This document shows positions 3,719 to 45,821 of a DNA stretch of 64,000 bases, in pieces. Origin of the DNA: Clostridia bacterium (GTDB taxonomy: Bacteria > Bacillota > Clostridia > Oscillospirales > CAG-272); the NCBI GenBank assembly GCA_017621085.1, contig JAGATW010000096.1:7283-71282 (forward strand), in the 5' to 3' direction. Under the pieces are notes generated by a model that saw only the letters and a program-made list of their open reading frames with translations, had not been told where the DNA came from and did not search any database. Made by a program: the position numbers and the translations under genes. The first letter of the stretch is position 1. Each line of letters opens with the position of its first letter.

Positions 3719-3762
3719 AATTTGCCACCCTGTGTCAATAAAATGAATAAAAGGAGCAATAA

Positions 3763-6914: not shown

Positions 6915-6941
6915 CAAAAATATTCATTATAGGAGATAATT

Positions 6942-7985: not shown

Positions 7986-8088
7986 TGGTAAATTAGCGAT
8001 TTACCAAAAGATAAAAAGCAAAATGTATAATGTGATTGTAAGGTTGAAAAACCGAGCAATCACATTTTATTTTAAAGGAGAAAAGAAG

Positions 8089-11114: not shown

Positions 11115-12638
11115 ATGAAAAAGAAGCTTTTTCTATTCACATTCATTGTAATGGCACTTGTATGTGTCCTTGCAATCTCTGTTTCTGCTGAAATTGCTTA
11201 CATTAATGCAAACGGTGAGCAGGTAAGTGCAGAAGCAACAGACATAGCGTACGAGCTTGAATTTCGTAATCCATTTGAAACAGGTGGTAACTGTAGATTA
11301 GAGTATATTTATCTTCATGATACAAGCATAACTAAAATTGTAGTTCCTGAAATTGAATTTACAAATTCAAAGGGTGTCGTTTACAAAATGGCAGAATATA
11401 GCTTTGTCAGACTTTCAACAGGCTGGGGAGATACATTATCCGTGTACGCAATAGGCGATAAGGAAACAAAGGCTAATAGCTTACACGCTCAAATCAAGGA
11501 GCTTGAGCTTCACATTCCTGTTCTTGCTGACGGTGCGGGTAGCAAGGGAAACTTAGCAGGCTGGTCAGGACTTGAAAAGCTAAGCTTTTATAAAAGAGCC
11601 TATGAGCCACAAAACAAGGGTGGATTTTTAAACGGATGCACATCAATAAAGGAGCTTCACTTTTATGGTGAAAACAATGAGCTGTCAGGAAACTTCTTCC
11701 CATCTACTATGAATGAGGGTGGTAAGGTAGTATTCTACGAAAATGCATCGGGCATTATCAAAGGCAGCGCAATGCAAGGACTTAACGGAAAAGACGTAAC
11801 AGTATATATGAATACTATTATGCAGCCGCAGGACAAGACCGACCCACGTCTTACTTGGAACAAAAAAGGAAATGCTTTAAAGTTCGTTCTTTTAGTTAAT
11901 GATAAATCCGGCTATACAGAGGAGCAAATTGCATCATACGAAACAATATGGCAAGCAGGCAACAATAAGAGTGAAAACAATGCAAAGTATTCAATGCCTA
12001 TTAATACCTATTGCGAGTTTTATAACAATCACTTGAATTTGAAAGAATTATCATCCTGTACTTCAAAATGTCTTGTATGTAATGAATTCGTAATTCCTGA
12101 AAATGCTACTCATAACATAGAAACAGCAATCAATTACGAAAGCTTTGCAAAGGATGGTCAAATAATTGTCGGCTGTGTAAACGAGGGCTGCACACATAAA
12201 ACAACAGAGACAGCACCGGCACTCTTTACATGCACAGGCTTCTCAGCTTCTCAAACAGGAACAAACGGAATTGTTCTTGGCTTTAAGGTAAATCAAGAAG
12301 CTATCAATGCCTACACAAGTGCAACAGGAAACACAATTAAGTATGGTGTATTTGTAGGCACACAAGCAAGCCTGGGCAACAGTGACCTTTCCGATGAAAG
12401 CTTAAGTGACAAGGTTATTATAGCCGAAATTAAGCAAACTGATTTTAAGGTATTTGACATAAAGATTATGGGCTTTGAAACAGAAGACCAAAAATCGACA
12501 TCTCTTGCAATCGGTGGCTATGTTGCTGAAACAGATGATGAAGGAACAACCTACTCATACATGCAGTTAGGCACACCGTCAGAGGGCGAAAAATATTGTT
12601 ACGATACATACAACAATATCGTATCAGCACTTAACTGA
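11115..12638 (+). CDS. Secreted protein with degenerate LRR-like core, paralogue 2 of the conserved-ends family
   Basis: Signal peptide MKKKLFLFTFIVMALVCVLAISVSA-E. The C-terminal ~180 aa are nearly identical to paralogue 1 (both end ...EGTTYSYMQLGTPSEGE.YCYDTYNNIVSALN). Confidence 0.8.
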   Translation: MKKKLFLFTFIVMALVCVLAISVSAEIAYINANGEQVSAEATDIAYELEFRNPFETGGNCRLEYIYLHDTSITKIVVPEIEFTNSKGVVYKMAEYSFVRLSTGWGDTLSVYAIGDKETKANSLHAQIKELELHIPVLADGAGSKGNLAGWSGLEKLSFYKRAYEPQNKGGFLNGCTSIKELHFYGENNELSGNFFPSTMNEGGKVVFYENASGIIKGSAMQGLNGKDVTVYMNTIMQPQDKTDPRLTWNKKGNALKFVLLVNDKSGYTEEQIASYETIWQAGNNKSENNAKYSMPINTYCEFYNNHLNLKELSSCTSKCLVCNEFVIPENATHNIETAINYESFAKDGQIIVGCVNEGCTHKTTETAPALFTCTGFSASQTGTNGIVLGFKVNQEAINAYTSATGNTIKYGVFVGTQASLGNSDLSDESLSDKVIIAEIKQTDFKVFDIKIMGFETEDQKSTSLAIGGYVAETDDEGTTYSYMQLGTPSEGEKYCYDTYNNIVSALN

Positions 12639-12682
12639 TAAAATCATTAAGCTACCCACTAATTTAGTGGGTAGCTTTTTTA
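12141..12682 (+). repeat. Copy 2 of the 542-bp colinear duplication
   Basis: See 10463-11004. Confidence 0.9.
12649..12682 (+). terminator. Rho-independent terminator (duplicate of 10971-11004)
   Basis: Same AAGCTACCCAC / GTGGGTAGCTT stem, then TTTTTAT tail. Confidence 0.8.
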
Positions 12683-12692
12683 TGCTCGCTTG

Positions 12693-12721
12693 TTGACAAA
12701 GCAAATCAATAATTGTATAAT
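12693..12721 (+). promoter_or_regulatory. Consensus sigma-A promoter of the giant gene
   Basis: TTGACA (12693-12698), 17 nt, TATAAT (12716-12721). Confidence 0.7.
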
Positions 12722-12785
12722 TACTTTATAGAGTTATAATTAAATTATAGTGATTTACTATGTTGTTTAAATGCAAGGAGGCAAT

Positions 12786-15700
12786 ATGGAAAAAATAAAG
12801 AATAATTGGAAGAAAATAGTCATAATAGCCTTAGCTGTGCTACTAATAATCACAGCAACAGTTATAGGCGTTTTGCTTTACGAAAGGGAGCTTAATAACT
12901 ATCGTGATGAAAAGATAGAAGAGCTTATTGAAAAGCAGGGCACTTATGATGAAAAAAGCATTGTCCTTAATAATACAAGCTTTGGCGAGGCGCAAAGACT
13001 TGCAAAAAAGCTTGGTGCAAAGCTAAGAATTACGGAAAATGGTAAATTTGCCACCCTAACTCTTGAGGATGAGCGCAGTATTATTGACATATTCAAGGAT
13101 GAAAACAACATAAAAGAGCTAAAAAGCCTAACCCCTGACTACGAGGCAAGAATAAACGAGGAAGAAAACGATGAAGAAGGCTTAAAAAAAGAGCCATCTG
13201 CCCCCGTTTATCAAGTAAAGGATGCTCTTTATAGCAATCAATCATACCTGAACTATATGAATTTACAGACCATATGGTCTAAAACTAAGGGTAAGGGAAT
13301 GAGCGTTGCTGTAATTGATACAGGTGTTGACACAGACCATCCGGACTTGGTAGGCAAAATAAGCGAATATTCATATAATGCCACCCTTGACAAAATAGTT
13401 AAGGACTATCAAGGGGAAAACGGTGGCTATGATTGGTCATTAATTGAGGACCAAGTAGGACACGGAACGCAGGTAGCGGGTGTTATTGGCGCAAATATGG
13501 ACGCAAACGGTATAACAGGAATCGCCCCCGAGGTGGAAATTGTTGTTATAAAGGCAGAGTGTGCCCAAAACGGAACATTTGTTCGTACATCTGACCTTGT
13601 TTTCGGTATTTATTATGCTATCGAGTGTGATGTTGATGTAATCAATATGTCCTTTGGTACAAAATACAACCTGTTTAGCGACGCTACATACCTTGCATAT
13701 GATAGCGATATTATTTGCGTAGCCTCAGCAGGTAACAACGGTAGCTCTGCTGAAAACTACCCTGCTGCCGACCAATATGTAATAGGTGTTGGCGCATTAG
13801 AGGCAGATGGCTGGGAGCTTGCAGAGTATTCTAACTATGGTATTAATACGGATGTAGTTGCCCCAGGTACAGTTTACACCACAAAAATGGGTGGTGGCTA
13901 TGGCACAATTGAGGGAACATCCTTTTCATCTCCTCTTGTAGCAGGAGCAATATCATTATATTTATCACAAAACAAATACCAAAGCTATGATGAGGTTTAT
14001 GAGCTTTTGTCCGTTTCAAGTATGGACTTAGGCGATTTAGGTAAGGACTGGTATTTCGGATATGGTGCATTGGATGTAAGCGCCCTTATTCTTGAGGAGC
14101 GCGGAACAATTACCTTTGAAATGCTAACCGACGAGCTTGACGATATAGAGGCTACCTTTATTCGCAATCATACAATGCAAGAGCTTCCTATACCGGAAAG
14201 ACTATATTCCTTGTTTGATGGCTGGTATTATGATGATAAATGTACAGAGGAGTATGCTTATTATGAGGATGTATTTACATCTGACCTTACCTTGTATGCA
14301 AAATGGATTAATGAAAGTGACGGAATACCATACACATATGAAATATTGGACGATGGAACAGTTGAGATAACATCCTATACAGGACATAGAAGATATATTA
14401 CCATTCCTGAAAAAATTGAGGGAAGAGTAGTTAGCTCCATAGGTGCAGGTGCATTTTTAAGACAGTCAAATATAAGAGAAATTAATCTTCCATCACAGCT
14501 TAAAACAATTAAAAACAGCGCATTTGAGGGATGTAGCTCATTATTAAATATACAAATTCCCGACACAGTTACATCTATTGGCGAAAGGGCGTTTTATGAT
14601 TGCTTTAAAATTTTAAGCATCGAATTAAGCACAAGCAGTCAGCTATCAACCATAGGTCAATATGCCTTTGCATCCTGTGGCAGAATTGAGTCCTTTGATT
14701 TGCCATCCACAGTTACATATGTAGATGCAACAGCCTTTCTTGGCAACCTAATGCAAACACAAATCAACGTAATGAACGGAAATGAAAGCTTTGTTTCCAA
14801 GGATGGCGTATTATTTAACAGATACGCAACCACGCTTATTGCATATCCTATGGGCAAGAGTGGTGACTACATAATACCTAACTCCGTTACACGCATAGGT
14901 GAGTATGCCTTTGCTTTTAGCCTGCTTGAATTTGTTGACTTAGCAAGGGTAGAAACCATAGGTAGCTATGCATTTAAGGGCTCAGTAATAGAAAGCCTTG
15001 TAATTAAGGACACAGTAACAAGCCTTGGCACAGGCGCATTTTCTATGTGTCCAGCATTATCAGAGGTTTATATCGGCAAGGGCATTAATTCTATTAGCTC
15101 AGGCGCATTTTCAGGCTGCTCATACTTAAGACAAATAACCATTCCTAACAATATTACAAGCATAGGCTATGCTGCATTTGGACAAAGCGGACTTACAGAA
15201 ATCAGCTTTGATAGTGGCTCTGACTTAAGAATGATAGGTATGGAAGCCTTTGCTATGACAAACCTTGTAAAAATAGAAATTCCTTCATCTGTAAATTTGA
15301 TAGACACAAAAGCATTTTATAAGTGCTATTCACTTGAAGAGGTTGCTTTTGACAGTAATTCCACACTTAATTCTATTAATGCCTACGCATTTTCCAAAAC
15401 GGGCTTAAAGGCTATTAATTTTCCATTAAGCCTTGAATATATTGATAGCTTTGCCTTTTCTGAATCAGCCCTTGAGGGTGAAATTTATATTCACGAAAAC
15501 ATAGAAGGAATGGGCGCAGGTGTATTTTCATATTGTAATTTACTCAACGCCATAAGAGTTAGCGAAAATAATAATAGCTATTGCGATATGAACGGTGTCC
15601 TTTACACAAAGGATTTAAGTCAGCTTTTTGCATATCCTTGTGGAAGCAAAACAACATCATATGTAATTAATGAAAGCACAAATAATATAATTCCATATGC

Positions 15701-18700
15701 ATTTGCAGGAGCAGAAAAGCTATATAGTGTAAAAATACCACAACAGCTAAGAGTTATAGGTGAGCTTGCCTTTTATGCTTGTGGCGCAAGGTCATATATT
15801 TTAAATAATGTGCTTGAGGAAATTTCCGCATCCTCCTTTGCAAAAAATGAGAATTTACAATTAATTACAATTCCTAAGAGTGTTAAAACTATTTCAAGAG
15901 GCGCATTTTCTTATAATACAAATATGAGAAGCATAGCTTTTGAAAATGAAGGCAGTCTTGTAAGAATAGGTAATGAAGCATTTTTAAAGTCAGGAATTAC
16001 AGAAATAAAAATTCCATCAACTGTTTCTACCATAGGACAGGGCGCATTTAACGGTTGCGAAAATCTTTATAAGGTAACATTTGAGGAAAATAGTCAGCTA
16101 AATTCAATTTCTGCATATATGTTTGAGGGTGCTTCCTCACTTTGCGAAATTATATTTGAAAAGGGCTCACAATTAAAGAGCTTACAGGCACACGCCCTTG
16201 ACGGAATGTCAAAAATTCAAAGGGTTGATTTGTCAAATACACAATTAACAAATGTTGATAATTTTGCCTTCCGTTTTTGCGAAAGCTTAACCGATTTATC
16301 ATTACCATCAACAGTTAGCTACATAGGTAGATATGCCTTTTACGGTTGCTCATCACTAAGTAGCCTATCCTTGCCAAGCTGTCTTGAATACTTAGGCGCA
16401 TATGCGTTTTTAGGCACAGATGGTATGGTGCTATACTTTATGAGTGAGAATTTCCCACCATACTTACAGGAGGAATGGGACAGAGGAGTTATATCTTATC
16501 ACTTAGGCGTTATTTCCGTTGAAGAAAAGGACGGCTGGAAATATGCTACATTAGTAGATGGTGGTATTTCCATAATTTCCTATACAGGTGAAAACAAGGA
16601 AATAGATATGGAAAAGCTTAACCTTGGTGGCGATATTGTTTCCATAGGTGGACAAGCATTTGAATTTAGTAATGTGGAAACGGTTAAATTACCAAGCACA
16701 CTGACAAGCATACAAAAATATGCCTTTGCAAGCAGTAAGCTTAAGGAGATTACAATTCCTAAGAGTGTTACCTTTATAGGTCAAAACGCATTTTTGGAAA
16801 CGCCTATAAAATCATTAACCTTTGAAACAGGAAGCGAATTAAGAGTAATAGAGCAATATGCCTTTGCATATACAGAAAGCCTTAATAGTGTAAGCTTACC
16901 GTCATCAATTGTAACCTTAGGCACAGGCGTATTTTTAAATAGTGGTATAAAATCCCTTACCTTTGATAAGGAAATAGGAATTGAAAAAATACCGCCACTT
17001 GCCTTTGCAAATACTAAAATAGAAGCTCTTACCTTGCCAAATAGTGTTTCGGTAGTAGATGATAATGCATTCAGAGAAACTAAAGCATTAAAGACCGTTG
17101 ATTTTGGTAATAACGAGTATATTCAATTAATGTCCAACGCCTTTTATCTAAGTGGCATAAGTGAGCTTACAATTCCTAAAAATGTTGGCTACATAGGCGA
17201 ATTTTGCTTTGTTGGTCTTACAAACTTAAAGGAATTTAAGGTAGATAGTGACCATGAATATTATAAAGCTATTGATGGCTTGCTTTACGAAAAGGACGGA
17301 AGAAAGCTTATTTGTGTCCCCTCAGCAAGACAAGGCACACTTACCTTGCCAAAAGAGGTTGAGGAAATAGGCTTTGGCGCATTTGAATATTCAAGCTTAG
17401 AGGGAGTAGAGTTTAATAAGGACTCCAATATACTAACTCTTGGCTATCGTGCCTTCTTCGGTATGGAGAATTTAAAGGAAATCACCGTTCCGAAAACTGT
17501 CGTTTCAATTGACTATTATGCCTTTGCATATTGTACCTCTCTTGAAAAAGTTTTCTTTGAGGAGGGTAGCCGATTAAGTGGCATATATGAGGGCGCATTC
17601 TGTGGTGATGAGCGTCTTTACGATATAACCTTACCAAATGAGGTTTTGGAAATATCCGATTATGTATTCTTTGGTTGCTCATCAATTAAAAAGCTCCCCA
17701 TTAGCAGTGACTCAAAAATAAAGGGCATTTATTCCTATGCCTTTGCATACACGGGCTTAACTGAGCTTAATTTACCAACAACAGTAAATGAAATAGGAAG
17801 CTATGCCTTCCGTGGCTCATCTGTTGAAAGAGTATATATTCCAGATGACAATTATGAGGTATTAACTATTGGCTACGGAGCCTTTGATTCCTGTAATAAT
17901 ATGGTAGAGCTTACAACTCCAATTATAGGAAGCTCTCTATATTACCCGGAATCAACAAGCCTTTCATACATATTTGGCACAGGAAATAATAGCCTAAAGG
18001 TTATGAACATAAGCGATGTTGTAACAGTAATACCTGATTTAGGTATTACCGGCTTTGGTGCTCTTGAAACACTTAATATTCCTGCAAGTGTAACTACATT
18101 AGGATATGGCGCTATAGCTACACCGGCTAAATATGAGCTTTTGTCCCCTGTATATGTTAATTCATATATATTTGATGGTGGAAATGTTGTCGGTAATGTA
18201 GTATTAACAGGTAACAAGCTACAAAGGGTAAGCTTTAACGGTCCTTATGTAGTATCTGTTACCTTGCCTGACACCATTGATGATAGCATTTCCTTTAGGA
18301 ATTGCACAAGCCTTGAAAGTGTTAATATCCCACTTGGCATAACAGCAATTGACAAAAACTGCTTTGAAAATTGCACCGCTCTTAAGAAAATAGAGCTACA
18401 TAGCGGTATTACAAGCTTAGGTGAAAAAGCCTTTTATAAATGCACAGGCTTAGAGGAGGTAACAGGACTTAGCGGTATTACCCAAATGGGTAATGAAGCC
18501 TTTAGCGGTTGTAGCAGCTTAAAGCGTGTTGAAAGCTTAGGCAGAATAAAGGTAGTGCCTGCCTATGCCTTTGCTTATTGCGAGTCCTTAGAAACAGCTC
18601 CTTTGCCAAGCACACTTACACAAATAGGAAGCTACGCCTTTATGCAGTGCTGCTCATTAAATGAGATTAATATACCAAATGGCGTAACTTCAATCGGTAT

Positions 18701-21700
18701 AGATGCCTTCGTTGGCTGTAGCGGTCTTACAAGAATACATATTCCGGGCTCTGTTTCCGTAATAGATGAGTATGTATTCAGAGGCTGTAAAGGACTTATT
18801 AACGTAACTATCGGAGAGGGCGTTACTGATATAAACAGATTTGCCTTCTACGATTGCTATGTATTAAGAGAAATTACTCTGCCAAGCACCCTTAAAAGCA
18901 TTTTAGGCTCTGCCTTTGGCTCAACAGATGTAGATGTTATAAGGAATAACAGCTCCTTAAATCTTACAATTGGTGGAAATGATTACGGTGAAATAGCCAA
19001 GAAAGCTCATACAATCTACGACAAAGACGGAAACGCAACCTATAAGGACCCATCAAGCCCATATACATATTACACCACAAGTGATGGCTTTAAGTTTATT
19101 GTAAATAATGATGAATACAGGCTAATAGAGTATGTTGGCAATTCAGAAACAGTAACCTTGCCCGAAGATGTAAATGGAAAATCATATATCTTAGATGGCG
19201 TATATGGAATAAAAAATGTAATTATTCCATCAAGCTTTAAGGAAATAAATGCAAAAGCCTTTTATAAAAACACCTTGCTTGAAAGCGTTGAATTAAAAGA
19301 GGGTGTTACTAAAATAGATGATGAAGCATTTTATCAATGTAGCAGCTTAAAGAGCATTAATATGCCTTCAAGCCTTACATCTGTTGGACAATACGCATTT
19401 AGAGAGTGCGCTATAACAACCATTGACCTTGGCAACGTAACAAGCTTAGGTGGTGGCGTCTTTACAGCTTGCAAGCAGCTTGAAATGGTTAAGCTTGGAA
19501 AAGTAGAAAAATTGAGTGCTACCTTTGAGGGGTGCTCATCACTTAAGGAAGTAACAATTCCAAGCACAGTTACACAAATGTCATCACGTATATTTGTAAA
19601 TTGCACATCTCTTGAAAGCATTATAATTCCTGAGGGAGTAACTGTTCTTGGTGACTTTACGGGATGTACGTCGCTTAAATCAATTAAGCTGCCATCTACC
19701 TTAAAGCAATGCGGAAGCTTTGCACAATGCTCATCTCTTGTAAGCGTTACTATTCCAAACGGTGTTCAGTCAGTTCCTGATTTTACTGATTGTAAGTCAC
19801 TTAGGTATGTATATCTTGGAAAATCAGCAACAGGAATAAGCAGCAGAGCGTTTAAGAACTGTGATAGCTTAAAGGAAATTGAAATAAGCTTGGAAAATAC
19901 AAGCTTTTCATCAAAGAATGGCATAATTTACGGTAAGCTTGCCAATGTAAAGAGTGTAATATTCACAGTTCCTACCTTAAGTGGTGTTATTACAATTGAT
20001 GACGGTACAAGCATAATTAACGCAAGCGCATTTGCTAATAATAAGACTATAACAAGGGTAATTATTCCAAAGTCAGTTGATGAAATAGGAGAAAATGCAT
20101 TTAGTGGCTGTACATCCCTTGAAAGCGTTATCTTTGAAGGTGGAAAAATTAAGGACAGAGCATTTAGTGGCTGTACATCTCTTAAGGACATAAGCCTTGA
20201 GGGTGCTACACAAATTGGTGAGTATGCCTTTGATAATTGCATAAGCCTGAGAAACGTTAAATTCGGACAAGACCTTACTATAATTGATGACTATGCATTT
20301 AATAGCTCAGGTGTTGAAAGCGTTGTTATTCCATCATCAGTTACAGAGCTTAATTCAGGTGCATTTATGTTCTGCGATAGCTTAGTTGAGGCTTCCTTGC
20401 CAAACGGAATAACAAGAATTCCGTATAACTGCTTTGCGTATTGCTATAATTTAAGACGGGTTGAAATTCCAAATACTATAACAACCATTACAGAAAACGC
20501 CTTTACAGGATGCTCAAATCTTGTAAAAGCAGAAATTCCAAATGGTGTTACAGAAATAGGAAGCAACGCCTTTTATGGAGCAAGCTTAACAGAGATAACT
20601 CTTCCAAGCACTCTTACAACAATTGATGATGATGCATTTGATAACTGCAACACACTTTATCTTATCAATAATAACAGTGGCTTAAGCTTAACTATTGGCT
20701 CAAGAGAAAATGGTCGTGTAGCAGAAAACGCAAAGGCTATAAAAAACAAAAACGGAGTATATCAATACGCAAGTGGAATTAGCGATTATTCCTATATTGA
20801 TACCGAAAACGGAATACGCTTTGCATTATCAGGCTCAAAATATACCTTAGTTGGCTATATCGGAGATGACACAGAAAATGCAATTGAATTACCAAGTACT
20901 ATTAATAATCAAGTCTATGAGCTATCAGGCTTAGCGGGCTTTACAAGAGTAAAGCTACCAAGCACCATTACCGAAATTAAAGCAAATGCATTCCAGCAAA
21001 ACGGTTCGCTGATAGAGGTTGTAATTCCATCATCTGTAAAAAGAATAGACTATGGTGCGTTTGCTTACTGTCCAAGACTTGAGGAGGTATATATTTGCTC
21101 AGGAGTTGAGGAAATAGGAGGATATGCCTTTAAGGGTTGCAGGAGCTTAAGTAAGGTAACCTTAGAAAACGGTGTTATAGCCTTAGAGTCAGAGTGCTTC
21201 TCGGATAATCCAAGGCTTGAAGAAATTATCATTCCAAACAGCACAAAAACAATAGGAGCTTATTCATTCAGCGGTTGTACATCCTTAAATAAGGTAACCT
21301 TGGGCAATAGCTTAGAGCTGATTGACCATGATGCTTTCAGAGATACAGCGTTCTTTGAAAACAAGGAAAACTGGACGGCAGAGGCATTAATTGTCAACGA
21401 TTATTTGCTCGCTGTTACTGATGAATGTGAGGTTTATCCATATTACGAGGGCTTAAAATGTGTATCTGTAATCAGTGGTGCTCGTTTGTCACAGGTTGTT
21501 GTGTTCGATGAAAACATTAAGCTGAACGTAAGCGCCTATACGGACACCTTGGTGTTTGTCAATATGCCAAAAACAAAGGTGCTTCGTGATTTCTTTGGAA
21601 GCAATAAAATAATACCAAGCTCAATTAAGAACATCGTAATTTTAGACGCAGATGTACCTTTGGTAAATCCTAAATTCTTTGAAAAGGCAAGTGGCTTAAA

Positions 21701-24700
21701 TATTTATTTAAGCAAGACCGAAAAGGATTTAAGATGGGATGCAAACTATCCCGGCTGGAATAATGGCAATCAGGCTTATTACGAGAATGAATGGATATGC
21801 GCACAATTCTATAATGAGGATGCTCTTGTTAAGAGAAGCTACCTATTAAATTCAGAGCTTATTGTAAGACCATATATTTATGACATCTATGATGAAGCAT
21901 CAATATATGGCTTAATAGGATGGGATTTGGATGGTGACGGAGTTAAGGACCGTATCCCTGTAACATCGGCAACGGACCTGAAAGCACAAGCAATTTTCGG
22001 TCAGAAGGAAAGACACTATACTATTTCCTTCCTTGATAAAAATGGGGAAAAGATAGCAATTTACACTCTTCCCTATGGAGAAAAAATTAATGCTCCGCAA
22101 ATGCCAACCGTAAAGGGCTACGACTTTGTTATGTGGGATGGCTATTATGATGGCATAACCGTAAATGGAGATATGACCTTTACAGCCCTTATGATGCATA
22201 AGGGAAATGGCCACGAATATACAGATGGCGTGTATATAAGCCCAACCTGTACAAAGGGTGGAGGCTACTTATATACCTGTACAATTTGTGACGAAGCATA
22301 TTTTAATCAAACAGAAAGCCACAAGGGACACATGCTAACAAACACAATTGTCCCACCAACCTGTACATTAAAGGGCTACACAATATACCATTGTGAAAAT
22401 TGTGACGATATTAATATTCATCATAGCTTTGTTCCAAAGGCAGAGCATAGCTATGGAGAATGGAATATTGTAAATAACGCAAGCTGTACAGAAAATGGCT
22501 CTAAAATAAGATATTGTGTTGATTGTCAAAGAGGCGATGTTGAGATAATAAGAAAGAGTGGCCACGAATACAGCGTTGATATAATAGAAAAATCAACTTG
22601 TATAAAGGAGGGCTTGGCAAATTACACCTGTAAAACCTGTAATAACGTAAGCCAAGGCAAGCTTGACCTTGCTTCTCACTCATACGAGCTAAAAACATCA
22701 TCATACGATTTTATTAAGGAACTTGTAGAATTAATGCCAAATATATTTGTTGGTAAAAACGGGGACAGTGCCTTTTACTATGAATGTATTACCTGTGGTG
22801 ATATCAGTACACAGGATAAGGGCGGAGTACAAACTAACTCAGCAGGTATATCAGGCTCTTGTACACATGTGGCAGGAAATTGGCGGGTTGTCAAGTATGC
22901 TCAAGGCAAGCAAAACGGTATTTTCGGAAAATACTGTGTATTCTGCTCAGAGCTTATAGAGGCAAAGGTTTATTCCTATGTACAAATTACAGAAAAGGGC
23001 TCTGATTACATTAAATATGAGGTAGAACAGGGCTATGAATACAGTATAGACGGAATTAACTATAACGATAGTGGTATCTTTAACGGACTTGGCTCTGATA
23101 ATGAATATGTAATTTACGTAAGAGACAAGGTAACTAAGGAGGACAAGGGTCCAACCTTAGTAACAACCGCAAAAAAATACACCTATACCTTCTATGATTA
23201 TAATGGCAACATTTTAAAGCAGGAATCAGTATTTGAGGGTGAAAAAATAGTATTGCCATCATTTACTCCATCAAGAGAAAAGGATGTACAATATACATAC
23301 ACCTTTAGCCATTATGATGGTTATAGTGAAGGAATGGTTGTAACAGAGGATGTATCCTTTACCGCTATATACAATAAGGTAATAAATAAGTACACCTACA
23401 TTTTCTATCATGACGACGGAGTAACAGAGCTTAAGCGAGTAAGCGCTGATTATGGCACTATCATAATGATGCCCACAATTAATCCAACAAAGGAAAGCAA
23501 TGGTGAAATATCATACACCTTTAGCCATTATGAGGGCTTTAGTGAGGGAATGATATTAACAGGTGATGTTTCCTTTAAGGCTGTATTTAATGAGGGCAAA
23601 ATGAAATATACATATTCCTTTATTGATATAAACGGTAATATTATTTTAAGTGGCACTCTTGAATACGGAAGCGTGGTTGTAGCTCCAAGCATACCTACTA
23701 ACCCACAATATCCACAGGGTCAGTATAATGGTGTATGGAAGGGCTACTATGATGGCTACATTATAACAGGCGATGTGGAATTTAAGCTTGAATATGTAGA
23801 TACATCTAAAAAGTATTCCTGTGCATTTGCAGATTGGAATGGAAGAATACTTTATTCATACATCGGTACAGCAGGGTCAGTAATTGTTTTACCATCAACC
23901 GAGCCATCAAGAAATAATACCCTTACTCATACCTACACCTTTATAGGCTATGAGGGCTATTATGAGGGTATGGTTTTAACTGAGAATAAGATATTTACAG
24001 CTATGTATGAGGAAAAGCCAATTATGTACACCTACACCTTCCTTGACTGGGATGGAAGTGTAATAGCAAGTGGTGAATTAATGTATGGTGAAATAATTCC
24101 AAAGCCAAATGACCCGACAAGACCAAGCGAGGGTGAGCTTTTATATACCTTTACAGGCTTTACAGGTTATTTTAACAATATGATGATTAATTCAGATGTA
24201 ACCTTTACAGCAACCTATAAGGCAACAAAGGGTGGACTATATAATGTCCATACAAACGAAGCCTATTGTGCCCCGGGTCAAATTGTAATAGTTGATTTGT
24301 ACGCAAAGCAATTAAGTGGCAACGGTGGAGTAATAGAGCTATTTGTAAATAGTGAATATGCATCTGTTGTTCAAATCTATTTGTATGGCGCTAATATAAG
24401 CACACAAAATACAAAGGATTATGTAAAAATAGAATTGCTTGACTTACTATCTCAGGATACAAAAATTGTTGGCGTTGCATTAATGATAAGCAACGATGCC
24501 CCCCTTGGCAATCTTGATGCTTTTGATGTCGGTACAAATATAACAAGCGACTTTAAGCCAATAGAGCTTTGCTTGCTGGGCGATGTTGACCAAAACGGAG
24601 TGATTGACAATGCAGATATTGATTTACTTAACAGATACGCCTTGGGCGAGTTTGAATTAAGTGAAAGGGAGCAATATTTTGCAGACGTATTCAAAACCGA

Positions 24701-24965
24701 TGTATATGAGCCGGGCAGTCACATAAATGCAAAGGACGTATTAAGGTTAAGACAGCTTATTAAGGCTCAAGCAAATGCTATGTCTTGCGAAAATAATGTG
24801 TCAAACAGCACAATTATTACCCCGTTAGATGCTCATGAGCCAACATCAGAGTCGGTTGCTTTTATAGAAAAAACAGACACGTGTGTGGCTATTTTGCCAA
24901 AAAGCTACCACGAGGACAGGCATTTTGTGATTATTTCAAGAAAAGGAGAGTTGATTTATGCGTAA
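12786..24965 (+). CDS. Giant (4,059-aa) cell-surface protein: signal-anchor, S8 subtilisin-like protease, BspA-type LRR array, Cys/His repeats, Flg_new repeats, cohesin-like module, dockerin
   Basis: Uninterrupted ORF. AAGGAGG (12775-12781) precedes ATG 12786; the track start 12771 has no RBS. Hydrophobic helix KKIVIIALAVLLIITATVIGVLLY. S8 triad motifs VAVIDTGVD, HGTQVAGVI, GTSFSSPLVAG (~13250-14090). LRR_5-type repeats ~14340-21400. Flg_new-type units (F/Y..Y.G...) ~21990-22200 and ~23170-24230. Dockerin EF-hand-like segment GDVDQNGVIDNADIDLLNRYALG (~24574-24770). Confidence 0.85.
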   Translation: MEKIKNNWKKIVIIALAVLLIITATVIGVLLYERELNNYRDEKIEELIEKQGTYDEKSIVLNNTSFGEAQRLAKKLGAKLRITENGKFATLTLEDERSIIDIFKDENNIKELKSLTPDYEARINEEENDEEGLKKEPSAPVYQVKDALYSNQSYLNYMNLQTIWSKTKGKGMSVAVIDTGVDTDHPDLVGKISEYSYNATLDKIVKDYQGENGGYDWSLIEDQVGHGTQVAGVIGANMDANGITGIAPEVEIVVIKAECAQNGTFVRTSDLVFGIYYAIECDVDVINMSFGTKYNLFSDATYLAYDSDIICVASAGNNGSSAENYPAADQYVIGVGALEADGWELAEYSNYGINTDVVAPGTVYTTKMGGGYGTIEGTSFSSPLVAGAISLYLSQNKYQSYDEVYELLSVSSMDLGDLGKDWYFGYGALDVSALILEERGTITFEMLTDELDDIEATFIRNHTMQELPIPERLYSLFDGWYYDDKCTEEYAYYEDVFTSDLTLYAKWINESDGIPYTYEILDDGTVEITSYTGHRRYITIPEKIEGRVVSSIGAGAFLRQSNIREINLPSQLKTIKNSAFEGCSSLLNIQIPDTVTSIGERAFYDCFKILSIELSTSSQLSTIGQYAFASCGRIESFDLPSTVTYVDATAFLGNLMQTQINVMNGNESFVSKDGVLFNRYATTLIAYPMGKSGDYIIPNSVTRIGEYAFAFSLLEFVDLARVETIGSYAFKGSVIESLVIKDTVTSLGTGAFSMCPALSEVYIGKGINSISSGAFSGCSYLRQITIPNNITSIGYAAFGQSGLTEISFDSGSDLRMIGMEAFAMTNLVKIEIPSSVNLIDTKAFYKCYSLEEVAFDSNSTLNSINAYAFSKTGLKAINFPLSLEYIDSFAFSESALEGEIYIHENIEGMGAGVFSYCNLLNAIRVSENNNSYCDMNGVLYTKDLSQLFAYPCGSKTTSYVINESTNNIIPYAFAGAEKLYSVKIPQQLRVIGELAFYACGARSYILNNVLEEISASSFAKNENLQLITIPKSVKTISRGAFSYNTNMRSIAFENEGSLVRIGNEAFLKSGITEIKIPSTVSTIGQGAFNGCENLYKVTFEENSQLNSISAYMFEGASSLCEIIFEKGSQLKSLQAHALDGMSKIQRVDLSNTQLTNVDNFAFRFCESLTDLSLPSTVSYIGRYAFYGCSSLSSLSLPSCLEYLGAYAFLGTDGMVLYFMSENFPPYLQEEWDRGVISYHLGVISVEEKDGWKYATLVDGGISIISYTGENKEIDMEKLNLGGDIVSIGGQAFEFSNVETVKLPSTLTSIQKYAFASSKLKEITIPKSVTFIGQNAFLETPIKSLTFETGSELRVIEQYAFAYTESLNSVSLPSSIVTLGTGVFLNSGIKSLTFDKEIGIEKIPPLAFANTKIEALTLPNSVSVVDDNAFRETKALKTVDFGNNEYIQLMSNAFYLSGISELTIPKNVGYIGEFCFVGLTNLKEFKVDSDHEYYKAIDGLLYEKDGRKLICVPSARQGTLTLPKEVEEIGFGAFEYSSLEGVEFNKDSNILTLGYRAFFGMENLKEITVPKTVVSIDYYAFAYCTSLEKVFFEEGSRLSGIYEGAFCGDERLYDITLPNEVLEISDYVFFGCSSIKKLPISSDSKIKGIYSYAFAYTGLTELNLPTTVNEIGSYAFRGSSVERVYIPDDNYEVLTIGYGAFDSCNNMVELTTPIIGSSLYYPESTSLSYIFGTGNNSLKVMNISDVVTVIPDLGITGFGALETLNIPASVTTLGYGAIATPAKYELLSPVYVNSYIFDGGNVVGNVVLTGNKLQRVSFNGPYVVSVTLPDTIDDSISFRNCTSLESVNIPLGITAIDKNCFENCTALKKIELHSGITSLGEKAFYKCTGLEEVTGLSGITQMGNEAFSGCSSLKRVESLGRIKVVPAYAFAYCESLETAPLPSTLTQIGSYAFMQCCSLNEINIPNGVTSIGIDAFVGCSGLTRIHIPGSVSVIDEYVFRGCKGLINVTIGEGVTDINRFAFYDCYVLREITLPSTLKSILGSAFGSTDVDVIRNNSSLNLTIGGNDYGEIAKKAHTIYDKDGNATYKDPSSPYTYYTTSDGFKFIVNNDEYRLIEYVGNSETVTLPEDVNGKSYILDGVYGIKNVIIPSSFKEINAKAFYKNTLLESVELKEGVTKIDDEAFYQCSSLKSINMPSSLTSVGQYAFRECAITTIDLGNVTSLGGGVFTACKQLEMVKLGKVEKLSATFEGCSSLKEVTIPSTVTQMSSRIFVNCTSLESIIIPEGVTVLGDFTGCTSLKSIKLPSTLKQCGSFAQCSSLVSVTIPNGVQSVPDFTDCKSLRYVYLGKSATGISSRAFKNCDSLKEIEISLENTSFSSKNGIIYGKLANVKSVIFTVPTLSGVITIDDGTSIINASAFANNKTITRVIIPKSVDEIGENAFSGCTSLESVIFEGGKIKDRAFSGCTSLKDISLEGATQIGEYAFDNCISLRNVKFGQDLTIIDDYAFNSSGVESVVIPSSVTELNSGAFMFCDSLVEASLPNGITRIPYNCFAYCYNLRRVEIPNTITTITENAFTGCSNLVKAEIPNGVTEIGSNAFYGASLTEITLPSTLTTIDDDAFDNCNTLYLINNNSGLSLTIGSRENGRVAENAKAIKNKNGVYQYASGISDYSYIDTENGIRFALSGSKYTLVGYIGDDTENAIELPSTINNQVYELSGLAGFTRVKLPSTITEIKANAFQQNGSLIEVVIPSSVKRIDYGAFAYCPRLEEVYICSGVEEIGGYAFKGCRSLSKVTLENGVIALESECFSDNPRLEEIIIPNSTKTIGAYSFSGCTSLNKVTLGNSLELIDHDAFRDTAFFENKENWTAEALIVNDYLLAVTDECEVYPYYEGLKCVSVISGARLSQVVVFDENIKLNVSAYTDTLVFVNMPKTKVLRDFFGSNKIIPSSIKNIVILDADVPLVNPKFFEKASGLNIYLSKTEKDLRWDANYPGWNNGNQAYYENEWICAQFYNEDALVKRSYLLNSELIVRPYIYDIYDEASIYGLIGWDLDGDGVKDRIPVTSATDLKAQAIFGQKERHYTISFLDKNGEKIAIYTLPYGEKINAPQMPTVKGYDFVMWDGYYDGITVNGDMTFTALMMHKGNGHEYTDGVYISPTCTKGGGYLYTCTICDEAYFNQTESHKGHMLTNTIVPPTCTLKGYTIYHCENCDDINIHHSFVPKAEHSYGEWNIVNNASCTENGSKIRYCVDCQRGDVEIIRKSGHEYSVDIIEKSTCIKEGLANYTCKTCNNVSQGKLDLASHSYELKTSSYDFIKELVELMPNIFVGKNGDSAFYYECITCGDISTQDKGGVQTNSAGISGSCTHVAGNWRVVKYAQGKQNGIFGKYCVFCSELIEAKVYSYVQITEKGSDYIKYEVEQGYEYSIDGINYNDSGIFNGLGSDNEYVIYVRDKVTKEDKGPTLVTTAKKYTYTFYDYNGNILKQESVFEGEKIVLPSFTPSREKDVQYTYTFSHYDGYSEGMVVTEDVSFTAIYNKVINKYTYIFYHDDGVTELKRVSADYGTIIMMPTINPTKESNGEISYTFSHYEGFSEGMILTGDVSFKAVFNEGKMKYTYSFIDINGNIILSGTLEYGSVVVAPSIPTNPQYPQGQYNGVWKGYYDGYIITGDVEFKLEYVDTSKKYSCAFADWNGRILYSYIGTAGSVIVLPSTEPSRNNTLTHTYTFIGYEGYYEGMVLTENKIFTAMYEEKPIMYTYTFLDWDGSVIASGELMYGEIIPKPNDPTRPSEGELLYTFTGFTGYFNNMMINSDVTFTATYKATKGGLYNVHTNEAYCAPGQIVIVDLYAKQLSGNGGVIELFVNSEYASVVQIYLYGANISTQNTKDYVKIELLDLLSQDTKIVGVALMISNDAPLGNLDAFDVGTNITSDFKPIELCLLGDVDQNGVIDNADIDLLNRYALGEFELSEREQYFADVFKTDVYEPGSHINAKDVLRLRQLIKAQANAMSCENNVSNSTIITPLDAHEPTSESVAFIEKTDTCVAILPKSYHEDRHFVIISRKGELIYA
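22209..22676 (+). repeat. Four in-frame tandem units of exactly 117 nt (39 aa) with a conserved H...C-x9-C-x2-C pattern
   Basis: Units start at 22209 (GHEYTDG), 22326 (GHMLTNT), 22443 (EHSYGEW) and 22560 (GHEYSVD). Each has one His near its start and three Cys (e.g. PTCTKGGGYLYTCTIC). Confidence 0.85.
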
Positions 24966-26043
24966 AACAAAAATTGTATATTTAATATTGGCTCTCCTTG
25001 TAGCTGTTTCTGCTATTATCTCCTGTGGGGATAATAGTGGAAACGAGCCACCAAGTGAGAATAATAAGGTGCAAATAACCTTTGTAACAAGCACGGGCAT
25101 GGAAATCGGCACATCGGTTGTGAATAAGGGTGACAGTGTTAGATACCCTAACCCACCGATGATACCGGGCATGACCTTTGAAGGCTGGGATAAGCAAATT
25201 TTTTCAGCCACCGAAAACACAACAATAACAGCGATTTATGTGCCGTTTAATCAAAATGATGATGGTGGCAAGGGGGAAATGGTCTTAGTTAGCTTCTTTG
25301 ATATAAACGGAAATATCATTTTCTCTGAGCGCATAATGACGGGCGAAAGACTTGAATACATACCACAAGCTCCGCAAATTGAGGGAAAAAGATTTATGGG
25401 CTGGAGTGAAACACCCGATATAATTACAGAGGAGTTAAATATTTACCCAATTTATGAGGACCTTGTCAGCTATGAGGTTAGCTTTTATGACTATGATGGC
25501 AGATGGATTGAAACCGTTACCGCCTATGAAAATAAAAGCGTTACTCCGCCAAGCCTTGAAAGAAGAGGCTATGATTTAATAGGCTGGAGTCAAGACTTAA
25601 CCTGTATTAATTCAAGCCTTGAGGTTTATCCTATTTACCAATTAATCACACAATCAAATGTGCTTGATATATCAAATAAGATAAGCAAGGACGGTACTTG
25701 TACACTCACCTTTACTATTAAGGGTAATGTATGCCTTGCAGGAATGCAAGGGGACATAAGCGTGCCTAATAATTTTACAATTGAAGAATTTACAGCCCTT
25801 GATGATGGCTTAGCTGCAAGACAGCAGGGAAACAAAATAAGCTTTGTGTTTACATCGGTAAGCGGTGAGAACATTACAAGTGAAGTAAATCTGTTTTCAA
25901 TTACATTAAGATGCACAGATAACACCTATTTTGCAAGAATGGGCGTTAACATTTCAATGGCTTTTGATGAGGATTTTAACAGTGTAGGCTTAGGTGGTAT
26001 CCTTGGCAACGAGTTTTTTACAGGCATAAGACCAAAATCATAA
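24958..26043 (+). CDS. Lipoprotein with three Flg_new repeats and a C-terminal cohesin-like module
   Basis: Lipobox AIISC-G. ATG 24958 overlaps the giant gene stop (ATGCGTAA). AAGGAG (24943-24948) sits in the last codons of the upstream gene. Repeats end in ..EGWDKQ, ..MGWSET, ..IGWSQD. The C-terminal ~130 aa (from ~25651) look like a beta-sandwich cohesin (TLTFTIKGNVCLAGMQGDISVP..). Confidence 0.8.
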   Translation: MRKTKIVYLILALLVAVSAIISCGDNSGNEPPSENNKVQITFVTSTGMEIGTSVVNKGDSVRYPNPPMIPGMTFEGWDKQIFSATENTTITAIYVPFNQNDDGGKGEMVLVSFFDINGNIIFSERIMTGERLEYIPQAPQIEGKRFMGWSETPDIITEELNIYPIYEDLVSYEVSFYDYDGRWIETVTAYENKSVTPPSLERRGYDLIGWSQDLTCINSSLEVYPIYQLITQSNVLDISNKISKDGTCTLTFTIKGNVCLAGMQGDISVPNNFTIEEFTALDDGLAARQQGNKISFVFTSVSGENITSEVNLFSITLRCTDNTYFARMGVNISMAFDEDFNSVGLGGILGNEFFTGIRPKS

Positions 26044-26094: not shown

Positions 26095-26124
26095 AGCCTT
26101 CTTTTATAAGAGAGGGCTTTTTGT
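26095..26124 (+). terminator. Rho-independent terminator
   Basis: AGCCTTCT / AGAGGGCT stem (one G-U pair), 8-nt loop, TTTTTG tail. Confidence 0.65.
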
Positions 26125-26125
26125 A

Positions 26126-26154
26126 TTGAAAATGTTATTTTGATATGCTATAAT
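26126..26154 (+). promoter_or_regulatory. Sigma-A promoter of the arabinofuranosidase gene
   Basis: TTGAAA (26126-26131), 17 nt, TGC-TATAAT (26149-26154). Confidence 0.65.
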
Positions 26155-26185: not shown

Positions 26186-27664
26186 ATGAGGGCAAAAATC
26201 ACTATTGATAAAAATAATATAATAGATAAAATAGACAGGCGTATTTATGGCTCATTTATAGAGCATCTTGGACGAGCTGTATATGAGGGAATATATGACC
26301 CCGAGCACAAGGACGCTGATGAAATGGGCTTTAGAAAAGATGTTATTGACCTTGTAAAAGCTCTTAATGTACCAATTGTACGTTATCCTGGTGGCAACTT
26401 TGTTTCCGGCTATAACTGGGAGGACGGTATAGGAGATAAAAGCAAACGCCCACGCAAATTAGACCTGGCTTGGCTCTCTTTAGAAACAAATCAAGTAGGA
26501 ATTGACGAATTTCAGGAGTGGGCAAGTCGTGTTGGCTCAGAAATAATGATGGCAGTAAACTTAGGCACAAGAGGTCCGGATGAGGCAAGAAGCCTAATAG
26601 AATACTGTAATGGAAAAACAGATACATATTATGCTAATTTGCGTCGCCAAAACGGCTTTGAAAAGCCCTTTGATATTAAGCTATGGTGCTTAGGCAACGA
26701 AATGGACGGAGATTGGCAAATATGCCACAAAACAGCTGAGGAATATGGCAGAGTAGCCACAGAAACCGCTAAGGTTTTAAAATGGGTTGACTCATCTATT
26801 GAATTAGTAGCCTGTGGCAGCTCCGACCCTAATATGCCAACCTTTGGTGAGTGGGAAAGAGTAGTGCTTAATCATACCTATGACTATGTTGACTATTTAT
26901 CAATGCATTGCTATTATGGCAATAAAGCACAAAACACAGCCGATTTTCTTGCAAGAGCCGAGGATATGGACAGATTTATTAAAACGACTGCCAAAATCTG
27001 CGACGAAATAAAGGAAAAGAAAAACAGTAATAAAACAATTAATCTATCCTTTGATGAATGGAATGTTTGGTACAGAACCAAGGATGAGGAAAAAACTATT
27101 GAAAAATGGCAAATTGCCCCTGCCTTGCTTGAGGAAAAGTATAACTTTGAGGACGCACTTTTAGTTGGCTGTATGCTTATTACCCTACAAAATAACTGTG
27201 ACCGTGTAAAAATTGCTTGTCTTGCTCAGCTTATAAACGTAATTGCACCAATAATGACAGAAAAGAATGGTGGAGCTTGGAAGCAAACTATTTTCTACCC
27301 GTATATGCTCTCATCCCTGTACGGTAATGGAGCAACATTAAATACAGAGGTTGAGGTTGGCTCCTATAAATCAAAGGAGGGCTGGGACATTCCATACCTT
27401 TATACCTCTACAATTTATAACGAGGAAAAGGACGAAATAGTTGTTTTTGCAGTTAACAGAAATCTAAATGAGGACATAAGCCTTGAAATAAATGGCTTTG
27501 ATGGCTATAAATTAGACAAGCACCTTGAATTATATTCAGATAATTTAAATGAAACAAACGACAAGGACAATGAAAGAGTAAAGCTAACAAATCGTACAAT
27601 TGATGATAAATCACCAATTAACCTAAAAAAGCACTCTTGGAATATGCTTACATTCAAAAGATAA
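26186..27664 (+). CDS. abfA: Alpha-L-arabinofuranosidase, GH51
   Basis: RRIYGSFIEHLGRAVYEGIY, VRYPGGNFVSGYNWEDGIG and WCLGNEMDG motifs. About 490 aa, as expected for intracellular GH51 enzymes. Confidence 0.9.
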   Translation: MRAKITIDKNNIIDKIDRRIYGSFIEHLGRAVYEGIYDPEHKDADEMGFRKDVIDLVKALNVPIVRYPGGNFVSGYNWEDGIGDKSKRPRKLDLAWLSLETNQVGIDEFQEWASRVGSEIMMAVNLGTRGPDEARSLIEYCNGKTDTYYANLRRQNGFEKPFDIKLWCLGNEMDGDWQICHKTAEEYGRVATETAKVLKWVDSSIELVACGSSDPNMPTFGEWERVVLNHTYDYVDYLSMHCYYGNKAQNTADFLARAEDMDRFIKTTAKICDEIKEKKNSNKTINLSFDEWNVWYRTKDEEKTIEKWQIAPALLEEKYNFEDALLVGCMLITLQNNCDRVKIACLAQLINVIAPIMTEKNGGAWKQTIFYPYMLSSLYGNGATLNTEVEVGSYKSKEGWDIPYLYTSTIYNEEKDEIVVFAVNRNLNEDISLEINGFDGYKLDKHLELYSDNLNETNDKDNERVKLTNRTIDDKSPINLKKHSWNMLTFKR

Positions 27665-30195: not shown

Positions 30196-30204
30196 GAGTA
30201 AAAG

Positions 30205-31257: not shown

Positions 31258-31278
31258 CGTGTAAAAAGGAGCATATCA

Positions 31279-45748: not shown

Positions 45749-45759
45749 AATGCCACAGA

Positions 45760-45788
45760 TTGACAACTTGAGCCTTTTGTGGTATACT
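45760..45788 (+). promoter_or_regulatory. Sigma-A promoter of LRR paralogue 3
   Basis: TTGACA (45760-45765), 17 nt, TATACT (45783-45788). It shares TTGACAACT with the promoter at 8860. Confidence 0.65.
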
Positions 45789-45821
45789 TTAACTGTTAAA
45801 AAATACTTAAGGAGTAAAACT

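Follow-up and report, generated by a model that had tools for sequence, protein, structure and literature searches.

How is a protein of more than 4,000 residues held at the surface of a bacterium when it has a hydrophobic, anchor-like helix at one end and a dockerin at the other? This question is raised by a stretch of DNA from a Clostridia bacterium (assembly GCA_017621085.1, contig JAGATW010000096.1, positions 7,283 to 71,282), referred to here as the window, whose 64,000 nucleotides include a single gene for a chain of 4,059 amino acids (aa) with a subtilisin-type S8 protease, a leucine-rich repeat (LRR) array and a C-terminal dockerin. A preliminary description of this gene, read from the letters by eye, had named three possible topologies: self-processing by the S8 domain, attachment at both ends, or release followed by recapture. 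With moderate confidence, we propose that the giant gene and the gene immediately downstream form a two-gene operon (promoter at 12693, terminator at 26095) for a giant surface protease-adhesin and its dedicated anchor, and that the giant protein would free itself from the membrane and then be held through its dockerin. This proposal builds on the domains of the two proteins, the structure of the operon, the cohesin fold of the downstream product and a conserved linkage of dockerin genes to cohesin genes, all of which are shown by the analysis.

The downstream gene encodes a cohesin lipoprotein

The gene that follows the giant gene had not been flagged in the preliminary description. Its ATG at 24958 overlaps the region of the giant gene's TAA at 24963-24965 (ATGCGTAA), an arrangement that implies translational coupling of the two genes. 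No terminator was found between the giant gene and the one that closes the operon (Table 1), and the promoter beyond it precedes a GH51 arabinofuranosidase gene. At the other end, the terminator of the preceding gene followed by a promoter with a perfect consensus match indicates that the giant gene has its own promoter and belongs to a separate transcription unit. The consensus promoter and the strong ribosome-binding site (RBS) that had been read by eye were thus both confirmed.

The signal sequence of the partner protein reads …AVSAIIS directly before C23, and MRKTKIVYLILALLVAVSAIIS followed by C23 fits the PROSITE-type lipobox pattern. The partner is therefore a predicted bacterial lipoprotein with lipidation at Cys23. 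A strict lipobox pattern was present in 10 of the 32 other representatives of the family and several more have a near-lipobox; many of the others are N-terminally truncated fragments.

The evidence for a cohesin comes from the C-terminal domain of the partner (residues 225-361, 137 aa, nucleotides 25630-26040), for which an exhaustive HMMER search collected 33 representatives. Modeled by AlphaFold2 (AF2) with the family alignment, this domain reached a predicted local distance difference test score (pLDDT) of 93.2 and a predicted TM-score (pTM) of 0.86. In a Foldseek search of the PDB with this model, ranks 1-34 were all cohesins (E 6e-7 to 1e-4; TM-scores 0.39-0.71, the best 0.65-0.71), including a non-cellulosomal cohesin of Archaeoglobus, CohA2 of Clostridium acetobutylicum, Coh2 of C. 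thermocellum, and cohesins of C. perfringens and Ruminococcus flavefaciens. When the family profile was compared with the PDB, the only matches with E <0.01 were to the NagJ cohesin of C. perfringens (E 0.006). The Pfam Cohesin family (PF00963) did not match the partner and matched 2 of 28 family members weakly (E 0.0026). Collectively, the modeled fold confidently points to a divergent cohesin carried on a lipoprotein.

Dockerin genes and cohesin genes are linked across loci

The partnership is not confined to the window. At seven of seven loci where the C-terminus of the upstream product is visible (the window, L023, L025, L027/L028, L031, L032 and L033), the product of the gene upstream of the family cohesin gene terminates in a dockerin of one shared subtype, with the signature GDVxxDGxIxxRD … L[ST][DE]xxQxxYA[DN]. 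The parent proteins of these dockerins otherwise differ. At L023 the dockerin is preceded by Cys/His repeats and a beta module and followed by a tail; at L027/L028 it belongs to a protein of 1,772 aa with LRR_5 repeats, B-repeats, a beta module and a tail. The L025 parent is a non-LRR protein of 1,102 aa, that of L031 has 1,471 aa, that of L032 is an LRR_5 protein of 1,107 aa, and the L033 parent likewise ends in the dockerin. A six-frame scan of the 64-kb window found exactly one dockerin and one cohesin of the partner's family.

Variants of this arrangement were also observed. At L032, positions 7364-8395 encode a member of the cohesin family (P0160, GCA_054276775.1) that lacks a lipobox and starts instead with a dockerin of this subtype; it is an adaptor and could stack between a cargo protein and an anchor. 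At L029 (4176-5992) and L030 (2680-4266), the cohesin lipoprotein gene comes first and is followed, at the contig end, by the start of a gene for an S8 pro-protease with a transmembrane helix and a Fervidolysin_NPro-like region; the partnership recurs here with the order of the two genes reversed.

Because the close homologues of the S8-LRR body at L002-L011 lack a family cohesin within 10 kb, the dockerin-cohesin pairing belongs to the C-terminal cassette and not to the S8-LRR body.

Relatives of the S8-LRR body

The N-terminal 555 residues of the giant protein have homologues of 55-60% identity in uncultured Clostridia. Oscillospiraceae SIG690, Faecousia sp. and Eubacteriales metagenome-assembled genomes (MAGs) contain giant homologous open reading frames (ORFs) of 3,370, 3,372, 3,522 and 3,722 aa; two others extend past the end of the retrieved locus and exceed 3,898 aa. 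Several of these genomes have two paralogues. Thus, the claim that no protein combining protease, LRR adhesin and cohesin or dockerin could be named needs to be amended: S8-LRR-dockerin giants exist in MAGs, where they are uncharacterized, and R. flavefaciens has LRR and peptidase dockerin proteins as separate chains.

The MAG giants (SVTH01000003.1, JAZUAW010000033.1/56.1, JAZNPH010000036.1) are colinear with the window protein over about 3,400 aa, through the helix, the pro-like segment, the S8 domain (60-67% identical), the first Flg_new repeat (65-70% identical), the LRR array, the RWDxNYPGWN…GWDLDGDG junction (36-48% identical across six giant homologues), the second Flg_new repeat and the Cys/His repeats. 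Unlike the window protein, they end right after the Cys/His repeats with a dockerin of canonical type, which scores 48-52 bits with Pfam in L005 and L008. Compared to them, the window protein has five extra B-repeats, a beta module, a dockerin of another subtype and a tail, and its gene is followed by the cohesin-lipoprotein gene; this cassette is shared with the unrelated parents at L025, L027, L031 and L032, not with the MAG giants. From this comparison, an S8-LRR-Cys/His body appears to have been joined, in the window gene, to a C-terminal cassette of the L027/L032 type together with its cohesin-lipoprotein gene.

At a further locus, L001, the gene next after an S8-LRR-dockerin gene encodes a Pfam cohesin (30.7 bits) and a cadherin-like domain. 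The giant gene of this locus (GCA_965327865.1, CBDOXM010000066.1) is split into ORFs of 921 and 2,517 aa by an in-frame TAA at 10139-10141, which sits in the LRR motif NPNY*TDVDG, where a Tyr codon is expected. The gene may be a pseudogene here, or the stop may be phase-variable or an error of sequencing.

Domains of the giant protein

The frame of the giant gene is open from 12771 to 24965, and its product is identical in length and sequence to MBO4983640.1 ("MAG: leucine-rich repeat protein [Clostridia bacterium]") at NCBI, in agreement with the uninterrupted frame of 4,059 codons described earlier. The inventory of domains that had been read by eye proved largely right, with the exception of an Ig-like stretch (residues 3400-3462), to which no family was matched, and of a cohesin-like module, which is discussed below. 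The coordinates of all features are collected in Table 1.

Table 1. Positions of features of the giant gene and the partner gene in the window; residues are those of the giant protein.
Feature	Position	Strand	Basis
Intrinsic terminator of upstream gene (13-bp stem, then T-run)	12649-12677	+	
Sigma-70-type promoter, TTGACA-17-TATAAT	12693-12721	+	12/12 consensus match
RBS AAGGAGG, 4 nt upstream of ATG 12786	12775-12781	+	Direct sequence reading
Giant coding sequence	12786-24965	+	Equals MBO4983640.1
Hydrophobic helix, residues 11-32	12816-12881	+	Sequence; conserved in homologues (alignment A2)
Prodomain-like segment, residues 54-125, between helix and catalytic domain	12945-13160	+	BLASTP, profile against 1r6v; conserved
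Peptidase_S8 catalytic domain, residues 169-427	13290-14066	+	Pfam, invariant columns, PDB subtilisins
Flg_new (Listeria-Bacteroides / InlB B-repeat) copy 1, residues 441-506	14106-14303	+	Pfam
BspA-type LRR_5 array, residues ~547-2903 (~7.07 kb), short linker modules between blocks	14424-21494	+	Pfam
Junction module (RWDxNYPGWN ... GWDLDGDG ... IPxTS), residues ~2975-3075	21708-22010	+	Conservation; family-less
Flg_new copy 2, residues 3078-3134	22017-22187	+	Pfam, 29.2 bits
Cys/His repeat region: four units, then two degenerate Cys pairs	22212-22970	+	Sequence; conserved in homologues
Five divergent Flg_new-type repeats of 67-72 aa, residues 3464-3813	23175-24224	+	hhalign
Beta-rich module directly before dockerin, residues 3815-3930	24228-24575	+	Colinear with L023, L027, L031 and L032 modules
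Dockerin, residues 3931-3995	24576-24770	+	Pfam, PDB dockerins, subfamily profile
C-terminal tail, residues 3996-4059; degenerate, where L023/L027 have a Flg_new-like tail	24771-24962	+	Alignment A4
RBS AAAGGAGAG of partner gene, within end of giant coding sequence	24943-24951	+	Sequence
Partner gene, 361 aa: lipobox, three Flg_new repeats, C-terminal cohesin domain	24958-26043	+	Sequence, Pfam, AF2, Foldseek
Intrinsic terminator closing the two-gene operon	26095-26118	+	Next promoter 26126-26154

The N-terminus consists of a Lys-rich start, a hydrophobic stretch of 22 residues without a clear AxA site, and a segment that resembles a subtilase prodomain. In BLASTP, residues 54-122 align with the Fervidolysin_NPro-like (PF22148) region of protein P0112, and the N-terminal profile aligns positions 50-434 with the fervidolysin precursor 1r6v, the pro-region included. 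Matches to PF22148 in 3 of 20 homologues were weak and not significant, and the assignment of residues 54-125 as a prodomain is a weak one. The S8 domain is clear, with 156.8 bits to PF00082 against a cut-off of 21.8 (E 9.5e-46) and matches of the N-terminal profile to PDB subtilisins at E 1e-48 to 1e-51. Asp178 (DTG), His226 (HGT), the oxyanion Asn317 and Ser379 (GTS) are invariant in an alignment of 20 homologues and stand in canonical order. These results uphold the earlier reading of intact Asp/His/Ser motifs, and by its residues the domain looks active. Stand-alone-looking S8 homologues of ~440-500 aa were also seen and are mostly contig-end fragments.

The LRR array, earlier given as dozens of BspA/LRR_5 repeats over ~7 kb, is recognized by LRR_5 (PF13306) in 20 Pfam stretches with a total of 1273 bits, and a hidden Markov model of the single unit resolved at least 64 units, each of ~23 aa, which are grouped into 13 blocks (residues 567-2837). 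Flg_new (PF09479) repeats number seven, in line with the estimate of at least six: two were found by Pfam, and five, which Pfam and NCBIfam missed directly, by profile comparison (hhalign of alignments A6 and A7, 97.3%, E 1.7e-11).

The Cys/His region holds four units that start at His3143, 3182, 3221 and 3260 (residues 3143-3298) with the pattern H-x(10-12)-C-x(8-9)-C-x2-C. They had been described as four exact 39-aa units; the number and the exact 39-aa period are correct, but the units are not exact copies, being only 8-31% identical to one another. Pfam and NCBIfam gave no match for them, and the equivalent repeats of the homologue at L008 found only weak, composition-like matches to C2H2 zinc fingers in the PDB. 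The units are probably Cys3His metal-binding knuckles, with zinc as the putative metal. NCBIfam also returned nothing for the B-repeats, the junction module or the partner protein.

At the C-terminus, the dockerin is marginal for Pfam and supported by its family. Dockerin_1 (PF00404, cut-off 22.9 bits) scored 23.2 bits on the isolated C-terminus and a sub-threshold 17.2 bits (residues 3931-3990) in the full-length scan. The sequence matches PDB entries directly (8x39 'Serine protease', E 5e-4; the Xyn10B dockerin 2ccl_B, E 8e-4), and the profile of the linked subfamily (alignment A4) matches 2ccl_B over its full length at E 1e-11. A type I dockerin is defined by two duplicated loop-helix segments that bind Ca2+, with D/N at loop positions 1, 3, 5, 9 and 12; here, the first loop, DVDQNGVIDNAD, and the first helix are canonical. 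The dockerin tail of the preliminary description therefore stands as a family call, tempered by the full-length score and by the irregular second loop discussed below.

The module before the dockerin is the part that could not be established as described. An alignment of five such modules compared with the structurally validated cohesin family (A1) gave 69.5% in hhalign (E 4e-5, 73 columns); the value with three sequences was 14%. There was no Pfam match, the PDB profile search was empty, and an AF2 model of the C-terminal 260 aa, made without an alignment, was unusable (pLDDT 38.9) and was discarded. A short cohesin-like sandwich is thus suggested, not established, and an X-module-type helper of the dockerin is possible as well. 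Searches with the C-terminal 245 aa and with the beta-module alignment found no database homologues, and a metagenome scan with the C-terminus of the giant protein returned nothing. In the protein collection clustered at 90% identity, the cluster of the giant protein (P0121) is represented by a fragment of 2,971 aa (P0122), which probably explains the empty search with the C-terminal 245 aa, as the giant C-terminus is probably not searchable there. Homology searches would overlook parts of giant proteins wherever a fragment represents the cluster in this way.

Proposed mechanism

The giant protein may be read as a pre-pro-subtilase, in the order export helix, prodomain-like segment, S8 domain, LRR array of ~2,350 aa, Flg_new spacers, Cys3His repeats, beta module and dockerin. 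First, it would be exported by the Sec pathway. Second, by analogy with other pre-pro-subtilases, the prodomain would aid folding, the S8 domain would cut it off, and the chain would be freed from its N-terminal membrane helix. Third, as the gene linkage suggests, the dockerin would bind the cohesin of the co-translated, lipid-anchored lipoprotein, which would be raised by its three B-repeats. The chain of ~400-450 kDa would then be displayed non-covalently, with the protease and the LRR array outward. Fourth, from the usual roles of these families, the LRR array may bind host, dietary or microbial ligands and the protease may act locally. Most likely, then, the giant protein is held on the cell surface by the cohesin of its partner.

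Several observations weigh against this mechanism. The helix may be a signal-anchor or a long signal-peptide core, and cleavage, retention or loss together with the prodomain are all possible outcomes. For the prodomain, no Pfam match was found in the giant protein, hhalign of the segment against the PF22148-bearing protein gave 2%, and a profile search of the PDB with the segment gave nothing. The dockerin is marginal, and its second calcium loop, DVYEPGSHINAKD, is one residue longer than the canonical loop, with Tyr at position 3 instead of Asp/Asn. The close S8-LRR homologues have no A1-family cohesin nearby, as described above. Furthermore, in R. flavefaciens, most dockerins of LRR parents bound none of the cohesins tested (PMC5301203). 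These points bear on the alternatives as follows.

Alternative explanations

The first alternative is attachment at both ends, in which the helix would be an uncleaved type-II N-terminal anchor, the prodomain would be unreleased or stay bound to the chain, and the dockerin-cohesin contact would be a second attachment, so that the chain forms a loop from membrane to membrane. The missing AxA site, which is conserved in this state in the homologues, and the weakness of the prodomain evidence would fit such a topology. However, the prodomain-like segment lies exactly between the helix and the catalytic domain, prodomains of subtilases are normally autocleaved, and a loop would put the protease at the membrane, inside the wall. 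If residues 54-125 are a prodomain, ordinary subtilase maturation would remove the N-terminal membrane attachment too. Because of this segment and the neighboring cohesin gene, self-processing followed by recapture is favored over attachment at both ends, which is considered unlikely. Among the topologies named at the outset, release and then recapture would be the somewhat more probable one.

A second alternative concerns the beta module, which might be a working cohesin, so that the giant protein would dock to the lipoprotein and in addition recruit another dockerin protein, or even a further copy of itself to give multimers, as with the Coh-Doc adaptors ScaH, ScaF and ScaI. The comparison of the five modules with the cohesin family has a consistent register, the module keeps its position at L023, L027, L031 and L032, the partner at L032 carries both a dockerin and a cohesin, which indicates that adaptors exist in the system, and ScaI offers a precedent for the order LRR, cohesin, dockerin. 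Set against these points are the missing Pfam and PDB sequence matches, the unusable AF2 model and the length of the module, which at ~115 aa is shorter than that of typical cohesins (135-170 aa in the PDB); furthermore, an X-module that merely stabilizes the dockerin would account for it equally. A role as adaptor or in a daisy chain is quite unlikely on this balance.

In a third alternative, the dockerin would have decayed and lost its binding, the giant protein would be held by its N-terminal helix alone or be secreted, and the cohesin lipoprotein would serve other partners. The marginal Pfam score, the atypical second loop and the frequent failure of LRR-borne dockerins to bind in the R. 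flavefaciens assays are in its favor. Against it, the first loop and helix are canonical, and irregular second loops similar to DVYEPGSHINAKD occur across the linked dockerin subfamily. Each member of this subfamily stands before a gene of this cohesin family, a pattern that points to co-evolution of the two rather than to decay. The overlap of the giant gene's stop codon with the partner's start codon, and the fact that the window holds no other dockerin, also speak against this alternative. A decayed dockerin is very unlikely.

Finally, an assembly artefact, chimera or collapsed repeat, which a repeat-rich protein from a short-read MAG might suggest, is highly improbable. The identical 4,059-aa product is found on at least seven contigs, which derive from different samples and assemblers: an assembly made with MEGAHIT at ENA, two Logan run assemblies and the NCBI MAG, all of them short-read. 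Within the gene, DNA repeats reach an identity of only 60-80% and no long tandem arrays were found; the N-terminal ~3,400 aa are colinear with the giant homologues and the rest with the L023, L027 and L032 cassettes.

Comparison with known systems

A close parallel to the proposed capture of the giant protein by a cell-bound cohesin is found in R. flavefaciens FD-1, which has LRR-Doc, LRR-Coh-Doc (ScaI) and Peptidase-UNK-Doc proteins, the last two of which bind the cell-surface cohesin ScaE (PMC5301203). Both systems place LRR arrays and a peptidase on dockerin chains in gut or rumen Clostridia. The likeness to ScaI is one of module order (LRR, possible cohesin, dockerin), and that to ScaE is that a cell-bound anchor with a single cohesin displays a protein on the surface. 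Compared to R. flavefaciens, the window system differs in three respects. First, it fuses an S8 protease, not a cysteine protease, with an LRR array in one chain of ~4,000 aa. Second, its anchor is a lipobox protein encoded immediately downstream, whereas ScaE is attached by sortase. Third, its cohesin and dockerin belong to divergent subfamilies, the cohesin being missed by Pfam Cohesin and the dockerin having the atypical second loop.

Single cohesin-dockerin pairs outside a multi-enzyme cellulosome are known from the NagJ cohesin and NagH dockerin of C. perfringens (PDB 2ozn, 2jh2), and in the one-cohesin 'minimal' system of Cellulosilyticum lentocellum (PMC13487519) one cohesin and one dockerin likewise join two proteins. 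The proteins connected in those systems are glycoside hydrolases or toxins, or a cellulase and a scaffold with a carbohydrate-binding module; the pair in the window would join a protease/LRR adhesin to a lipoprotein cohesin. A cellulosome was considered for the window and rejected: the partner has one cohesin, the cargo has no carbohydrate-active enzyme domain, and the nearby GH51, GH5 and rhamnosidase-like genes have no dockerins.

Among subtilases, fervidolysin (1r6v) has a similar succession of export signal, prodomain (in the giant protein, a prodomain-like segment), S8 domain and non-catalytic modules, and the N-terminal profile of the giant protein aligns with its precursor from the pro-region onward. 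PrtP and ScpA are cell-envelope pre-pro-subtilases with large C-terminal extensions. Compared to these three, the extension in the window is longer than 3,600 aa and made of LRR and other repeats, its anchoring would be by a dockerin and not by LPXTG or a wall-binding domain, and the homology of its prodomain is weak.

The concept and the module order are thus already known from Ruminococcus and do not amount to a new principle. What differs here is the fusion of S8 in the same chain and the size of that chain, the lipoprotein-borne cohesin that is invisible to Pfam, and the strict cassette of dockerin gene and cohesin gene. In the literature searched, no description of this family, of the cassette or of lipoprotein-borne cohesin anchors was found. 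It is possible, and is suggested here tentatively, that the locus exemplifies a mobile cassette of two genes for surface display in gut Clostridia that is so far undescribed. In it, any large cargo, be it an LRR adhesin, the present protease-adhesin or a non-LRR protein, would end in B-repeats, a cohesin-like module and a distinctive dockerin, and the next gene would encode a lipoprotein with a matching divergent cohesin.

Genomic surroundings

Just upstream of the giant gene, positions 8945-10960 and 11115-12638 encode two signal-peptide proteins, one with LRR_5 and one without a Pfam match. Their C-terminal domains of ~210 aa are 72% identical, start with Cys/His-rich motifs (…GCVNEGCTHKTTE…) and have no assigned family; the two appear to be paralogous surface proteins that share this module. 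Upstream of this surface cluster (4890-8748) lie genes for a CotH-kinase-domain protein (674 aa), a Macro-domain protein (347 aa) and a weakly VWA-like protein (241 aa). A third LRR_5 protein (704 aa) is encoded at 45750-47864; the NCBI representative of its cluster has 680 aa, so the sources differ in the start codon that they call.

Rhamnosidase-like, GH5 and GH51 arabinofuranosidase genes and a gene for a WYL-domain regulator occupy 1322-4860 and 26186-27664; none encodes a dockerin. Positions 28556-34341 encode LicD, an IspD/TarI-like cytidylyltransferase, an NAD-dependent epimerase/dehydratase family protein and a CDP-glycerol glycerophosphotransferase of 1,020 aa. This group is a locus for teichoic acid or another wall polymer, and fits an envelope of Gram-positive type, across which the stalk of the lipoprotein would need to reach. 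The window has no tRNA gene or Rfam element. Its gene content is that of an ordinary chromosome, with uvrA, uvrB, serS, aspS, a Mur ligase gene, a gene for a SipL-domain protein and teichoic-acid-type genes, so that an origin from a mobile element or phage is unlikely.

Significance

Uncultured Oscillospiraceae-like Clostridia are abundant in the gut, and how they attach to particles, mucus and cells is poorly known. The locus gives a concrete model for the anchoring of a giant protease-adhesin and extends cohesin-dockerin biology beyond fiber degradation. As both subfamilies are largely missed by Pfam, such systems are probably under-counted in genome surveys, and the pair could serve as an orthogonal cohesin-dockerin tool. 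If the two-gene cassette is what it appears to be, it would be a lipid-anchored, non-covalent alternative to anchoring by sortase or by S-layer homology domains, and the cohesin-like module of the cargo, together with adaptors of the L032 type, might build chains of giant adhesins on the cell surface.

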